From positions 1 to 46,671 of the forward strand of contig DVKO01000114.1 in NCBI GenBank assembly GCA_018715985.1: 46,671 nucleotides of DNA. The letters run 5' to 3'. The notes beneath the pieces are model-generated. The model had not been told where the DNA came from and ran no database searches. It saw only the letters and a list, made by a program, of their open reading frames with translations. The first letter of the stretch is position 1. Every line of letters starts with the position of its first letter. A program made the position numbers and the translations under genes. Of this stretch, positions 21,958 through 46,671 are shown piece by piece. This DNA comes from Candidatus Enterenecus avicola. GTDB taxonomy: Bacteria > Bacillota > Clostridia > Oscillospirales > Oscillospiraceae.

Positions 21958-21964
21958 CCTGTTT

Positions 21965-22158
21965 TCCCTGCCTTGTCTCGTGACCACTTTTTTAAAACCC
22001 ACATCTCTATAACGGGACGTCCCCTCATCTGGCGGAACGCAGGCCTCCCGGTCCTCTTCGGAGGGTCCCGGATGTTGGAAGTGTAGAACCCAGATGGAGA
22101 CGACCCACCTGCATTTGCGTGCAGGTTTTTAATTGAGTGGCACGGCTATGGCGGGGGT
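21965..22158 (+). ncRNA. ssrS: 6S RNA
   Basis: Long self-complementary rod (5' CCCTGCC..CGTG.CCACTT..TAAAACC pairs with 3' GGTTTTTAA..AGTGG.CACGG..GGCGGGG) with a central bubble and the Firmicutes-type ACCCACCTG...GCAGGTT...CACGGC motif. Confidence 0.85.
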
Positions 22159-22169
22159 CTTGAATCATC

Positions 22170-31115: not shown

Positions 31116-31120
31116 TAACA

Positions 31121-31219
31121 GGCTATATGACTGACGGAAGTGGGTTGACCACAGGGAGTATAGCCGTAGAAATGCCGACCGTCTGGGCGCACCTATCCGG
31201 GGATGGGTGCGCCCTTTTT
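31121..31219 (+). ncRNA. ZMP/ZTP (pfl) riboswitch with overlapping terminator
   Basis: P1 GGCTATA/TATAGCC, TGACTGACGGAA, GTGG..CCAC.GGGAG, P3 GCCGACCGTCTGGGC; terminator GGGCGCACCTATCC/GGATGGGTGCGCCC-TTTTT; upstream of AICAR transformylase. Confidence 0.93.
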
Positions 31220-34916: not shown

Positions 34917-35102
34917 GAGCGTGTCGAAAAAGTTCGACACGCTTCTCAAAAATGCAAGCATTTTTTCGAGGGGATGCAGCCCGCTGTATGCATAATCGGG
35001 TCAAAGTACGACCCGATTCCACACTGGCGGGCTCCAGAAGTGTTTTTTTCGATGCTCATGTCCCCGAAAAAACAGATTTTCGATTTATTTTTCCATCTTC
35101 GG
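34917..35102 (+). mobile_element. MITE copy A (right end lost)
   Basis: Near-identical to 44130-44313; begins GAGCGTGTCGAAAAAG directly after the hairpin; similarity stops at CCATCTTCGG. Confidence 0.8.
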
Positions 35103-44129: not shown

Positions 44130-44396
44130 GAGCGTGTCGAAAAAGTTCGACACGCTTCTCAAAAATGCAAGCATTTTTGAGAGGGGATGCAGCCCGCTGC
44201 GCGCATAATCGGGTCAAAGGACGCCCCGATTCCACACTGGCGGGCTGAGAAGTGTTTTTTTCGATGCTCATGTCCCCGAAAAAAACAGATTCAATTTATT
44301 TTCCCATCTTCGGATGGGAAAACTCTGCCGAGGGCTTTTTGACGATGCAAGATCATCTGCCCTTCTTGCATTGACGTGAGCTTTTTCGACAGCCTG
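44130..44396 (+). mobile_element. MITE copy B (complete, about 265 bp), probably IS1182-family derived
   Basis: Terminal inverted repeats TGTCGAAAAAGTTC / GAGCTTTTTCGACA; no transposase; flanked by a direct repeat of the terminator hairpin. Confidence 0.85.
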
Positions 44397-44425
44397 AGAG
44401 GGGCGTTGACGTGCAACGCCCCTCT
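44395..44425. repeat. Target-site duplication, right copy (terminator of the split spore gene)
   Basis: Identical 31-mer; self-complementary AGAGGGGCGTTG/CAACGCCCCTCT; 9 nt beyond the stop at 44434. Confidence 0.9.
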
Positions 44426-44433
44426 CAGTTTGC

Positions 44434-44841
44434 TTACCCTTGACAGCAGGGGTCGCAGTGTTTGGCCTCCTGGTACCCTTCCGGGGGTGCAACAGTGTTG
44501 GGCGGGAAGAACTCTTCGGTGGGGAACTGTACCTTGCGGAACAGGGCGCAGGGGTCCTCCTCGCTGCCGCCCGTGCACTCCTTGCTGGGAATGCAGTAGT
44601 CATAGGCAGGGATGAGCAGTTGACTGTCCCGCTCCAGGCGGATCAAGGAGAACTGTCCCAAGGTCACATACACCCGTTTCCCCTCGCTGCCCATGGACAG
44701 CTCACCGGGGAAGCAAGAGGTGATGCAGGGCGGGATGTCGCTGGGGTCACAGCCACAGCTGCAGCTGCATCCGTTGTTCTCACAGTTCTCCACCAGCTTC
44801 ATGCTGAGGATGATGGGATCCACAGCCTCTACTGTTGCGAT
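44434..44841 (-). pseudogene. 3' half of a Cys-rich spore coat/exosporium (CsxA-like) gene interrupted by a serine-recombinase element; probably restorable
   Basis: 135 aa starting IATVEAVDPIILSMK...; no RBS or start; motif VYVTLGQFSLIRLERDSQLLIPAYDYC.P.KEC...DPC..F resembles (from memory) the C-terminal part of clostridial CsxA; begins at the att-like dyad centre. Confidence 0.7.
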
Positions 44842-44855
44842 CAACCAGGTAGGCT
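44824..44855. other. Putative att (recombination junction) site
   Basis: Dyad AGCCT-N5-GTTG-CGAT-CAAC-N5-AGGCT centred on GA 44839-44840, at the gene/recombinase junction. Confidence 0.65.
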
Positions 44856-46292
44856 CCCCCTTGCCCGGCAAAAGATCACCCGGACCTCTCCCTCGCCGTC
44901 CACAGTGATGCGCTCCACCAGTCTGGCCATGTCCGTCCGGGTCATCTCCCGCCAGTCCATCTGTCTGCGCACCCATTCCTGCGCCTGTTGTACATCCAAT
45001 AAAGATTTATTTTGCAAGGACTGTAAAGTTAAAATCCTTGCCTGAATTTCTCTGCGCTTTTCAAGAAAATCTTCCAAGGTCATAGCCTCGTTGGCGTAGA
45101 GCTGCGCATATCGCTGTTCCTTTCGTTCCAGCCGTTTCCACTCATCGGCAGCTTTTCGCCCCTCATCCCGGTGCTCCAGCGCCCAGTGTACCAGCCTCTC
45201 CTCCACCTGCCCCGCAGGCGGGCCACCCTGCATCACATATCCGGCAATGGCACGCAGAAGCTGATTCTCCTCCACTTTGGTTCGGTTTTCACACAGCCCC
45301 TGGTCGTTTCCCGCGCACTTCCAGTAGATGCGGGTATGGGCATAGGTATAGGTTTTCCGACAAAAGCTCCTCCCACACTCCTGACAGATCATCAATCCGC
45401 TGAATGCATGACAGGCGCTGTATCGCCTCCGTACCTCATGTCCGTCCCGCTCCTGGATTTGGCTGCGGGCCTTCCGCTGGGCCTGGGCCTGTTCAAATTG
45501 CTCCGGTGTGACAATGGCCCACTGCGGGCGGAGGTGGTGATATTGCTCCTGGGGCAAAAGTTTTCTCTGACGCCCCGTGAGGTAGTTTTCCACCTCATAC
45601 TTGTGGTTGACGTGATGCCCGCAGTAGATGGGATTGGTCAAAATGCGGTGGACGGCCGACGGAGTCCAGCCGCAGCCCTGCTTGGTGCCATATCCCCAGG
45701 CATCCAACTGTTGGGCAATGGTACGACACCCCAGCCCCTGCTCCACATACATCTGATAGATCAGACGCACCACATCCGCCTCCGCCTGGTTGATCTGAAG
45801 GGTGAAATTATCTATCCGGTCATATCCATAAATGCACCGGGGCACCCTCCCCTTCTGAGCGTTGAGCTTTTTCCCGAACTTTACCCGCTTGCTCAAATTG
45901 GCGCTCTCCTCCTGGGCTAAGGCCCCGAATACGGTGAGGACGAACTCGGATTCCCCGAGGCTGTCCATATCCGCGGTGAGAAAGCGAGTATTCACCCCCA
46001 ACTCCTTCAGGGCCCGGACACTCTGGAGAAAGTCCACGGTATTTCGGGCAAACCTGGAAATGTCTTTGACCACCACCAGTTCAAACCGGTGGTCTTTCGC
46101 GTCGTGGAGCAACGCCTGAAACTGCTCCCGCTTTTGCAATCGTGTTCCGGAAATCCCTTCATCTGCATAGATCTTTACCAGCTCGTATCCGTTGCGCTGG
46201 GCATATGCCTGAAAGAATTCCTTTTGATGGGCCAAGCTGTCCAACTGCTCCTCTTTGGCGGTGGAGACCCGACAATAGGCTGCGATCCGCAT
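44841..46292 (-). CDS. Large serine recombinase (SpoIVCA/CisA-like: resolvase, recombinase and Zn-ribbon domains)
   Basis: YCRVST catalytic Ser, DEGISGT...R..F, KDISRFARN, ES...SKRV..G, YGY, IL.NP.Y.G and CQECG...C...C; GGGAGGAG RBS. Confidence 0.93.
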   Translation of the reverse strand: MRIAAYCRVSTAKEEQLDSLAHQKEFFQAYAQRNGYELVKIYADEGISGTRLQKREQFQALLHDAKDHRFELVVVKDISRFARNTVDFLQSVRALKELGVNTRFLTADMDSLGESEFVLTVFGALAQEESANLSKRVKFGKKLNAQKGRVPRCIYGYDRIDNFTLQINQAEADVVRLIYQMYVEQGLGCRTIAQQLDAWGYGTKQGCGWTPSAVHRILTNPIYCGHHVNHKYEVENYLTGRQRKLLPQEQYHHLRPQWAIVTPEQFEQAQAQRKARSQIQERDGHEVRRRYSACHAFSGLMICQECGRSFCRKTYTYAHTRIYWKCAGNDQGLCENRTKVEENQLLRAIAGYVMQGGPPAGQVEERLVHWALEHRDEGRKAADEWKRLERKEQRYAQLYANEAMTLEDFLEKRREIQARILTLQSLQNKSLLDVQQAQEWVRRQMDWREMTRTDMARLVERITVDGEGEVRVIFCRARGSLPG

Positions 46293-46310
46293 CTTCTTCA
46301 CTCCTCCCAT

Positions 46311-46338
46311 AAAAAAAGAGAAGGGATCTCCCCTTCTC
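46311..46338 (-). terminator. Intrinsic terminator between the small ORF and the recombinase
   Basis: Minus-strand AGAGAAGGGA-GA-TCCCTTCTCT followed by TTTTTT. Confidence 0.65.
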
Positions 46339-46445
46339 TATCTCCAGCAGCTGCACAGCTTCTCCATTAAAATCTGCATCCACAATTCTGCCAATTCTCC
46401 GCCTCGATTGGGGTCTTCCATCACAAAATGCACCGTTTTTTTCAT
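46338..46445 (-). CDS. Small hypothetical protein, 35 aa (MKKTVHFVMEDPNRGGELAELWMQILMEKLCSCWR); candidate recombination directionality factor
   Basis: Strong GGGGAGGAGG RBS before ATG 46445; directly upstream of the recombinase. Confidence 0.55.
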   Translation of the reverse strand: MKKTVHFVMEDPNRGGELAELWMQILMEKLCSCWR

Positions 46446-46466
46446 GGGGCTTCCCTCCTCCCCAAC

Positions 46467-46497
46467 AGCATATGAGCATCTCCCCCGCCCATATACC
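46467..46497 (-). promoter_or_regulatory. Putative mother-cell sigma-E-type promoter
   Basis: Minus-strand GGTATAT-N16-CATATGCT matches the B. subtilis sigE consensus ATA-N16/18-CATAcanT; directly upstream of the small ORF RBS. Confidence 0.5.
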
Positions 46498-46517
46498 AAG
46501 GGAGCTGGGCATAAAAA

Positions 46518-46544
46518 CAGGGGCCGACCCATGGTCGGCCCCTG
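46518..46544. terminator. Terminator hairpin (insertion target of MITE copy C)
   Basis: CAGGGGCCGACC-CAT-GGTCGGCCCCTG preceded by an A run (T tract on the minus strand). Confidence 0.75.
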
Positions 46545-46671
46545 AGCGTGTCGAAAAAGTTCGACACGCTTCTCAAAAATGCAAGCATTTTTTCGAGGGG
46601 ATGCAGCCCGCTGCGCGCAGAATCGGGTCAAAGGACGACCCGATTCCACACTGGCGGGCTGAGAAGTGTTT
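46544..46671 (+). mobile_element. MITE copy C (cut by the window end)
   Basis: Near-identical to 44130-44257; starts GAGCGTGTCGAAAAAG right after the hairpin. Confidence 0.85.

Follow-up and report, generated by a model that had tools for sequence, protein, structure and literature searches.

So far, a handful of Bacilli and Clostridia in culture have been shown to rebuild genes during development. The locus studied here shares with the known intervening elements (skin, SPbeta, vfbin, vrin, gin and yin) a split coding sequence, a serine recombinase gene at the element edge and an att dyad. Among these, skinCd in sigK of Clostridioides difficile has 19 genes, including the recombinase CD1231 and a directionality factor of tested function, CD1234 (PMC5025042). 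As far as the accessible text of that paper goes, skinCd likewise has a single edge serine recombinase, a small sigma-E-controlled protein (in our case a sigma-E-like motif) and a precise in-frame restoration of a mother-cell gene, a role that is presumed here. Our element differs in that its target is likely a structural spore-surface protein and not a sigma factor, that it has 4 genes instead of 19, and that its directionality factor is predicted.

The gin element in gerE of Bacillus cereus ATCC 10987 is 28.6 kb long, of low GC, with 31 genes and three recombinases (PMC5595907). According to the available portion of that report, gin resembles our element in having no phage genes and a serine recombinase with a helper factor (predicted here), and its target is a late sporulation gene; our element, in contrast, is ~4 kb long, with host-like GC, one recombinase, housekeeping cargo and a target other than gerE. 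SPbeta of Bacillus subtilis (SprA/SprB) is an active prophage in the polysaccharide synthesis gene spsM (PMC4191935, accessible part). There, too, a spore outer-surface gene is rebuilt and a serine integrase works with a helper (both predicted here), whereas our element lacks phage genes.

In Laceyella sacchari (cotJC) and Ruminiclostridium cellulolyticum (spoIIID), skin-like elements are single, genome-inferred cases (bioRxiv 2022.02.25.481979). The nearest relatives of our recombinase also lie in spoIIID, and our own target differs from both genes; the accessible part of that preprint describes no rejoined transcript for either case and does not mention CsxA. Similarly, the accessible parts of the CsxA literature (PMC7333573, bioRxiv 2026.09.03.749163) make no mention of a split csxA. 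We found no published work on this split target; supplementary tables of existing surveys could list more interrupted genes or homologues. A preceding sequence-only reading had taken the target to be undescribed, which, as far as we found, holds for the CsxA-like gene, but the novelty was somewhat overrated, as elements in the coat gene cotJC and in spoIIID are published. The locus would add to the class a structural spore-surface target and a minimal phage-free module with housekeeping cargo.

In the chicken-gut bacterium in question (genome G000), the gene for a likely spore-surface protein lies in two halves with a ~4.2-kb insert between them. We estimate at roughly 0.77 the probability that this insert is a phage-free element which splits a CsxA-related gene at codon 153 and is excised by its own recombinase, probably in the sporulating mother cell.

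Two halves of a Cys-rich gene

The window, i.e. the whole 46,671-nt stretch of DNA analysed, holds the 3′ half of the gene on the minus strand (44434–44829), beginning at the shared Glu codon 153 and ending with the stop codon; it aligns to residues ~153–278 of intact relatives. The previously noted 135-aa stop-to-stop frame around it (44434–44841, minus strand), devoid of a ribosome-binding site and a start codon, was reproduced. The 5′ half with a matching half-site, which had been predicted, is present on an off-window contig of the same assembly (C125, 4281–4738, plus strand). Rejoined at a GA core, the two halves form an in-frame ORF of 283 aa, which belongs to a conserved Cys-rich family of ~278 aa; the window frame is its C-terminal half. 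Orthologues do not naturally start at the fragment's position, since 49 of the 70 genus genomes with a match carry a full-length, uninterrupted gene. The gene order around the target is purA, CsxA-like gene, murB. No full-length protein more than 75% identical to the 3′ half was found among the best 120 matches, and in two fragment clusters the 29 members listed are all 84–217 aa long. Annotation pipelines will label both halves hypothetical fragments.

Across seven carrier species, dN/dS is 0.029 for the 5′ half, 0.044 for the 3′ half and 0.032 for purA. Judged by these ratios, both halves are under strong purifying selection, as had been supposed for the half in the window. In a structural model of the intact relative P0003, the insertion break falls within a predicted beta-strand (residues 149–154).

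The sequence-only reading had proposed a join at GA 44839–44840. A join at this site, 11 nt away from the actual one, yields a 291-aa protein with eight surplus residues and disagrees with the RNA junction described below, which rules it out. The dyad seen at the recombinase end does exist, with its centre, and the crossover, at 44829–44828 on the minus strand, which makes the first four codons of the 135-aa frame part of the element. Of the reported stop and terminator, the former stands; the hairpin past the stop (44394–44428, no strand assigned) carries its T-run on the other strand, and another repeat copy (44130–44401) duplicates it.

On profile evidence, the split-gene product is a remote homologue of CsxA, so that the resemblance noted earlier proved real but distant. 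The family profile matches P0461, a named exosporium protein CsxA, at E 7.7e-9; hhalign of the family against it gives a probability of 99.3% over 211 profile columns, and the window fragment is 35% identical to CsxA over 92 aa. Under the rule of Janganan 2020 (BLASTp identity >20% over at least 50% of CsxA), the intact relative P0003 falls short, with 33% over 88/293 aa of P0461. The rejoined protein has 18 Cys, compared with 28 in P0461. In the available text of the CsxA papers cited above, CsxA of C. sporogenes and of group I C. botulinum is alike in length and Cys-rich; unlike it, the split gene lies between purA and murB and not beside collagen-like genes, and its product's spore location is predicted. 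The collagen-like/glycosyltransferase cluster is absent at the purA–murB locus and present beside P0461, and a synteny bridge through a divergent csxA neighbour gene is a weak one, at 21% identity along 258 aa (E 3e-5).

The P0003 model is beta-rich (pLDDT 83; a SPOCS/DUF3794-like fold was considered). Foldseek found no match for it in the PDB at E≤0.001, and the family profile found nothing below E 0.36 among PDB sequences. The gene halves and intact relatives matched no Pfam, NCBIfam or PHROGs family; the named CsxA is likewise matchless in the Pfam copy used. PF27077 occurs on 12% and 33% of the members of two Atlas look-alike clusters, with a recognition value below the mark.

The recombinase, its sites and the nagBA cargo

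The attR site (44806–44844, minus strand) comprises an element-side arm (44844–44830), the GA core (44829–44828) and a host-side arm from 44827, the host extent being approximate. Its partner attL lies around C125 4737–4738. Both share a short core with inverted arms, and excision would restore the reading frame. The element arm of attR is complementary to the arm right of attL at 13 of 15 bases, a result that 3 of 200,000 random pairs equal. In 7 of 7 clade genomes the dyad is best centred on this GA; the dyad search was ambiguous in G506, G622 and G682, ranked GA second in G564 and gave no clear centre in G464.

As claimed before, the large serine recombinase (44841–46292, minus strand; 483 aa, with a longer ATG start possible at 46310) is full-length: it has resolvase (PF00239), recombinase (PF07508) and zinc-ribbon (PF13408) domains, and its TGA (44843–44841) lies inside attR, at the element edge. 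The N-terminal catalytic motif is invariant in 16 relatives, and dN/dS is 0.118.

The 35-aa ORF (46338–46445, minus strand) and the sigma-E-like promoter motif upstream of it (46467–46494, minus strand) were found where they had been reported. The ORF is conserved upstream of the recombinase. In structure prediction, the complex of the two proteins scored 0.73, against 0.24 for the best control (116 of 157 solved complexes attain the mark used, as do 2 of 215 mismatched pairs), with contact agreement of at least 84% and a partner pLDDT of at least 74. The 35-aa protein is predicted to bind the C-terminal DNA-binding region of the recombinase, like a recombination directionality factor.

Matched to the sigma-E consensus, a sigma-E-like box precedes the small ORF in all 7 nagBA-clade genomes and at 0 of 12 other loci examined. 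Additionally, a sigma-K-like box precedes the CsxA-like gene at 39/39 loci versus 1/110 control loci, here before the 5′ half (C125, 4191–4216). Both promoter assignments come from matching motifs among related genomes. A terminator-like hairpin (46317–46339, minus strand) separates the 35-aa ORF from the recombinase and bears on how the latter gets expressed; such a hairpin is visible in G002, G009, G013 and G036 and absent in G008 and G457.

The element order is attL, nagB (C125, 5014–5757), nagA (C125, 5748–6878), 35-aa ORF, recombinase and attR, ~4.2 kb in total. In G000 the whole element is reconstructed across a contig break at a ~270-bp dispersed repeat inside it, the right half of which ends the window (46544–46671, minus strand). 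The nagA terminator hairpin (46518–46544, minus strand), present on both sides of the repeat, links the window end to C125 through a 25-nt exact match, with no second such pairing across the 36 left and 48 right flanks. In C125, the repeat's left flank matches the window end over 25 nt and its right flank matches C48 over 20 nt; because of this pairing, C125 is mis-joined at the repeat, and we rejected sigK as a part of the element. In relatives without the repeat, nagB, nagA, the ORF and the recombinase lie on a single contig. Five relatives have 3.8-kb elements of the same order, each on one contig and in direct orientation.

The nagB and nagA of the element are the sole amino-sugar breakdown genes found in the genome, and no second nagB was found. 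Their GC is host-like (nagBA 0.60, genome 0.61). This nagB is at most 68% identical to those of other genus members, unnamed proteins reach 72–88%, and the nagB tree conflicts with the host tree for G013. The element of G013 has no nagA; the cargo is therefore not indispensable. Besides the recombinase, PHROGs revealed no phage genes and a single weak nagA match (E 0.007). The best match among phage records, MT838016 (42%), was considered as a circular form of the element and dismissed: it is a linear 6.4-kb scaffold that bears no annotation and lacks the target gene, and thus no evidence of a circle.

Probable excision and its alternatives

In three of four chicken-gut RNA runs, contigs cross from the window exactly into the 5′ half, which is evidence that the gene in its rearranged form occurs inside an animal. 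In run X16, a 582-nt contig agrees with the window over 404 nt (0 differences) and with the 5′ half over 184 nt (2 differences), the join lying at the predicted GA. Contigs of X19 and X15 leave the window at 44829 into 5′-half-like sequence, the loose end of X15 blending two contigs into one consensus (agreement 0.77). The fourth run, X14, shows unrecombined attR. In DNA, the unrecombined left end (attL) is bridged by a single contig in 3/3 runs. The RNA and DNA runs are different samples, contigs drop rare variants, and the source strain of the rejoined RNA contigs is a presumed one. X16 also holds nagB-nagA contigs near-identical to those of the element (1254 nt, 5 differences), with almost no cover over C125 4744–5169. 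RNA cover is absent over parts of the recombinase, which we kept out of the evidence. Of the two products to look for, the rejoined site was thus found in RNA, but the circle junction (attP) was absent among the contig ends listed and from the assembly; contigs lose such rare forms. JGI metagenomes gave 0 matches to a 28-nt pattern taken from the junction's 3′ side.

In the proposed mechanism, sigma-E would switch on the 35-aa ORF, whose product would bind the C-terminal DNA-binding region of the recombinase and redirect the enzyme to attL × attR. The element would leave the chromosome as a circle, and sigma-K would transcribe the rebuilt gene, the product of which probably serves as a coat or exosporium scaffold linked by disulphides. 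In the forespore the element would stay in place, and it would therefore be inherited. In this clade the element appears to have taken in a host nagBA operon, a cargo that likely penalises element loss in growing cells. We infer the sporulation link from the promoter motifs, from the family to which the protein belongs and from the sister recombinases located in spoIIID. The clade relatives carry spo0A (5/5) and spoIVA (4/5); in G000, sigE is above the cut-off, and neither spo0A nor spoIVA was found in the 91.6% complete assembly.

An unlikely alternative is that excision is precise but random or stress-driven, with no sporulation control, and that the rebuilt gene is read only in cells lacking the element. 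The timing of excision is itself deduced, and yin of C. botulinum is excised at all time points, according to the accessible part of PMC10747680. Elsewhere in the genus the element is patchy (6 split genomes, with 5′ halves 86–95% identical to the intact P0003), which suggests mobility. However, the sigma-E-like box is conserved on the predicted directionality factor, the recombinase is retained in all 8 clade genomes, attL was unbroken in every DNA run, loss during growth would delete the sole nagB found, and sister enzymes are located in spoIIID.

We regard it as quite improbable that the rejoined RNA came from element-free strains of the same species, the gene of the carriers being dead or rarely rebuilt. 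The separate RNA and DNA samples, the minorities hidden by contigs and the gene left intact in most of the genus speak for it; yet no intact allele of this clade was found among 78 genus genomes or among the best matches of protein searches, X16 holds the element's nagBA, and both halves show strong purifying selection in seven carrier species.

The halves could also be joined by RNA splicing, or act as two proteins, with the DNA unmoved; in favour, it is RNA libraries that supply the direct evidence for the join. This reading is very hard to credit: Rfam revealed no intron or ribozyme in either contig (the element had no match at all, and tRNAs, 6S and a ZTP riboswitch were all that turned up elsewhere), the junction coincides with the centre of a recombinase-type dyad, a terminator hairpin stands behind nagA, the 3′ half lacks a ribosome-binding site and a start codon, and the break lies within a predicted beta-strand. 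Equally improbable is a much larger rearranged segment in G000 with sigK and flavodoxin, or an inversion: C125 does continue from nagA to these genes, the halves are on separate contigs, and other sites of the CsxA-like gene do offer examples of large and of inverted segments, but the repeat flanks mark C125 as mis-joined, the five relatives have short direct elements, and a DNA contig of X4 that extends 2114 nt past nagA would, by length only, end at window position 44405, in the downstream hairpin.

The split across Clostridia

Across Clostridia, related recombinases interrupt the CsxA-like gene at an identical codon (the class search left out G567). Among the 80 closest GTDB recombinases, 17 lie at the CsxA-like gene and 58 directly upstream of a spoIIID 3′ half. 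In a recombinase tree (FastTree, first 300 residues per match), the enzymes from this insertion site do not appear as a single clade, and the spoIIID group is nested among them.

Somewhat short of an even chance, in our view, is the broader proposal that the CsxA-like gene is a class-wide programmed-editing site in gut Clostridia. If so, a two-gene excision module without phage genes would have captured core chromosome pieces (here the sole nagBA, elsewhere an aldehyde dehydrogenase, lrgAB or a pilus cluster), and the cargo would lock the module into the lineage. Every sporulating mother cell would excise housekeeping genes to make its spore shell; at least four sites in the gene would be used, and some species would unscramble three pieces by inversion plus excision, G037 and G106 being genomes with such three-piece loci.

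The rejoined junction could mark late sporulation in uncultured gut bacteria, and the recombinase, att sites and 35-aa candidate directionality factor could form a compact genome-engineering set. A cultured carrier exists (L127, in a record titled Pseudoflavonifractor capillosus An386a), with which timing and function become testable.

Reassembly of the split gene and its element

The minus-strand frame at window positions 44434-44841 is open and lacks both a ribosome-binding site and a start codon. As the sequence-only reading had described, a 35-aa ORF and a full-length large serine recombinase lie upstream of it. While the 3′ fragment had no match in Pfam or NCBIfam, 1667 longer proteins match it, typically about 278 aa in length. 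It aligns to their C-terminal half; orthologs do not begin at the fragment start.

The assembly (G000; 1.74 Mb, 91.6% complete) includes the window as the entire contig C76. A tblastn search with intact relatives as queries located residues 1-154 on another contig of this assembly, at C125:4281-4742. The 5′ half with a matching half-site, which the earlier reading had called for, was thus found, its dyad lying at C125 4737-4738. Enumeration of in-frame joins placed both the best-scoring rejoined protein and the sole strong dyad at one GA, located at 44829-44828 in the window and at 4737-4738 on C125. The dyad arms are complementary at 13 of 15 bases, a level reached by 3 in 200,000 random pairs. 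The predicted in-frame rejoining holds and yields an ORF of 283 aa with 18 Cys; the join point first proposed lies 11 nt upstream of this GA, would add 8 residues and was abandoned. Eleven genomes were examined for the dyad. Its best centre is GA in seven of seven from the clade carrying the nagBA-bearing element and also in G114; GA is tied in G401, G225 has CA instead, and the dyad search gave no clear centre in G464.

In five genomes (G002, G008, G009, G036 and G457) a single contig carries purA, the 5′ half, nagB, nagA, the small ORF, the recombinase, the 3′ half and murB in this order, with the halves in direct orientation and about 3.8 kb apart. Many intact relatives have the gene, free of any insert, flanked by purA and murB. 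C125 itself continues past nagA, via a repeat of ~270 bp, to flavodoxin and sigK. We rejected this as the true order and consider it a mis-join at the repeat, because duplicated terminator hairpins flank the repeat copies and the two flanks on C125 have different partners: only the window end matches the left flank (25 nt), while the right flank pairs with contig C48. The element in G000 is therefore about 4.17 kb long. A contig from the gut DNA run X4 reaches 2114 nt beyond nagA; judged by length, it would end at the hairpin downstream of the gene if the strain had no copy of the repeat.

The element contains no phage genes except the recombinase. In 7/7 clade genomes where it was found, nagB is single-copy and lies within the element; the G013 element has lost nagA. 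A sigma-70-type promoter just inside attL (L001:4855-4883; 2 found against 1.0 expected by chance) would drive nagBA in growing cells.

The non-coding ~270-bp repeat occurs at window 44130-44401, 34917-35102 and 46544-46671 and at dozens of other sites in G000. Its copies bear an identical terminator hairpin of 20-32 nt on both sides, as if it inserted at terminators and duplicated them. It breaks many contigs, and the flanks are mismatched through mis-joins in 4 of 6 internal copies; these flanks can be used for re-scaffolding the genome. In G030 (L044, G030:C373) this repeat seems to have entered the locus at the hairpin that separates the small ORF from the recombinase. The window also holds an ordinary 6S RNA and ZMP/ZTP riboswitch (21962-22161 and 31117-31195).

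The sequence-only reading had pointed to a CsxA-like motif. Homology was borne out: the family profile (75 members) matches P0461, a protein named exosporium protein CsxA, and profile-profile comparison of the family with CsxA gave 99.3% over 211 columns. P0461 adjoins collagen-like and glycosyltransferase genes, an arrangement also published for CsxA. The kinship is distant, since the family falls short of the BLAST coverage by which CsxA homologues have been recognized and the split gene lacks such a cluster; the window fragment alone gave 35% over 92 aa. Judged by its sequence, the product is most aptly described as a remote homologue of CsxA. An intact relative was modelled as beta-rich, the break point falling inside a strand, and the model had no match in the PDB. 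According to bioRxiv 2026.09.03.749163, CsxA builds the exosporium lattice and a SPOCS fold is predicted for it; by analogy, the split gene's product may play a similar lattice role.

Rejoined form in gut RNA

The species is present in chicken-gut sequencing runs: at least half of its words are contained in 13 of the 23 runs listed. Four of the six RNA runs were compared with the window. On the DNA side the comparison covered X4, X5 and X7, which are 3 of the 13 DNA runs containing the species and come from three studies. The search for the rejoined site, suggested by the sequence-only reading, succeeded: contigs from RNA runs X16, X19 and X15 (three studies) leave the window exactly at 44829. 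In X16, a 582-nt contig equals window 44426-44829 with 0 differences and then 30/30 shown letters of the 5′ half; it covers C125 4560-4743 before running into the 3′ half. The same run also contains the element's nagB-nagA. The X19 contig has 29/30 letters of the 5′ half after its exit, and the X15 contig carries one difference and ends loosely in a mixed consensus. RNA run X14 yielded unrecombined attR and recombinase pieces. Each DNA run spans attL in a single contig at a depth of 7.6-18, with no break there among the contigs listed. Run contigs omit rare forms and carry no strand; therefore the junction evidence, among the contigs listed, shows that the rejoined form is present in RNA libraries and the split form is dominant in DNA.

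The rejoined RNA might instead derive from an element-free strain. This is unlikely because no intact allele of the clade was found among 78 genus genomes or in protein searches, and because purifying selection acts on both halves in seven carrier species (dN/dS 0.029 and 0.044, next to 0.032 for purA and 0.126 for murB). For the recombinase, dN/dS is 0.118, with dS near saturation. Its tree pairs G008 with G009 and G002 with G013, as do well-supported nodes of the host tree; vertical inheritance would lead one to expect this.

A candidate directionality factor and a proposed link to sporulation

The element is probably tied to sporulation. A sigma-K-like motif precedes the gene in 39/39 loci, which are kin; it occurs in 1/110 control loci, and its background rate in the genome is 0.006 per 130 nt. 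The sigma-E-like motif already seen upstream of the small ORF recurs in 7/7 clade genomes, also kin, and in 0/12 other loci within 330 nt of the small ORF. Both calls are matches to presumed consensus patterns. PMC517825 gives the spacing of the promoter elements.

The predicted complex of the 35-aa protein with the recombinase scored 0.73, the best control 0.24; the mark adopted for this score is reached by 116/157 solved complexes and 2/215 mismatched pairs. Contacts in the model agree to at least 84%, with a partner pLDDT of at least 74. On the recombinase, the predicted contact sites of the 35-aa protein are residues 338-374 and 440-478. We judge these to lie in the region where known directionality factors attach, namely the second DNA-binding domain close to its coiled coil (PMC12286644). 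In C. difficile skinCd, sigma-E controls the small factor and the recombinase is constitutive (PMC5025042). The hairpin between the 35-aa ORF and the recombinase fits separate control of the two genes.

In G000, sigE scores above the cut-off and a sigK-like gene is present. Searches of this 91.6% complete assembly did not find spo0A or spoIVA; among clade relatives, five have spo0A and four have spoIVA.

Sporulation gene-intervening elements are an established class with skin, SPbeta, vfbin, vrin, gin and yin as members, and skin-like inserts are also on record in cotJC and spoIIID. The element shares with this class the insertion within a coding sequence, the large serine recombinase at its edge, att sites whose recombination restores the frame, and the existence of a rejoined gene; it probably works as skinCd and gin do. 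It does not qualify as a prophage, and it differs from gin itself. Listings of open-access papers gave no split csxA-like gene, and nothing pairing 'csxA' with 'recombinase' was found in open-access papers. Three things are added by our analysis: gut RNA in which the two halves are joined at exactly the base predicted, a small protein that is a candidate directionality factor, and an element that carries the nagBA of its host as cargo.

Other split loci and related recombinases

In the genus, 70/78 genomes match: 49 are intact, 13 split at codon ~153 (G030 being a probable addition), 5 split or cut near codon 33 and 2 fragmented. Within the order, G114, G225, G246 and G401 are split at codon ~153 too. 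Among 300 Clostridia, 168 match, and at least 15 of the matches listed are split there outside this order. Nine of these loci were examined. Every one encodes a related recombinase, which in six is truncated to about 280 aa, and the elements span roughly 1.4-11.8 kb. In the same-site elements L097, L098, L100, L101, L104 and L105 the recombinase match stops near residue 280 and so lacks the zinc-ribbon region; G622 has the smallest of them, about 1.4 kb.

Cargo of same-site elements varies (aldehyde dehydrogenase, NUDIX hydrolase, LrgA/B, type IV pilus cluster) and looks host-like. A same-site element of ~20 kb (L053-L054, G114:C2:79950-99900) holds a type IV pilus or competence cluster, an S-layer-homology protein and a tyrosine recombinase. 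In the best 80 viral-collection loci, the 3′ half adjoins the recombinase in one.

Further sites in the gene, near codons 26, 33 and 76, serve other recombinases. In G037 and G106 the gene lies in three pieces that can be rejoined in frame at dyads. In G037:C2 (L039:4544-16757, L040:14533) the middle piece is inverted and two recombinases are present; rebuilding would take inversion plus excision. The pieces in the one-contig genome G106 (C1 743257, 926355 and 961392; L106, L107, L108), split at codons ~26 and ~76, all point the same way and are separated by 183 kb and 35 kb, and excision would take out a very large chromosome segment. In the elements of the same gene at L131, L139, L141, L103 and L058, the recombinase is either reversed or found at the attL end.

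The closest relatives of the recombinase also point to sporulation. Eighty were taken from GTDB, several of them probably the same records as loci already described. Of the 20 with an identity of at least 46%, 17 are located at this gene; below 46%, 56/60 lie just upstream of a spoIIID 3′ half. One paper found in the literature search notes a single case of this kind. The spoIIID-associated recombinases (L144-L205, L051, L052) are 41-47% identical to the one in the window and lie directly upstream of the spoIIID 3′ half in 58/80 loci; known from 3′ halves, their records are titled Lachnospiraceae, Oscillospiraceae, Christensenella and others.
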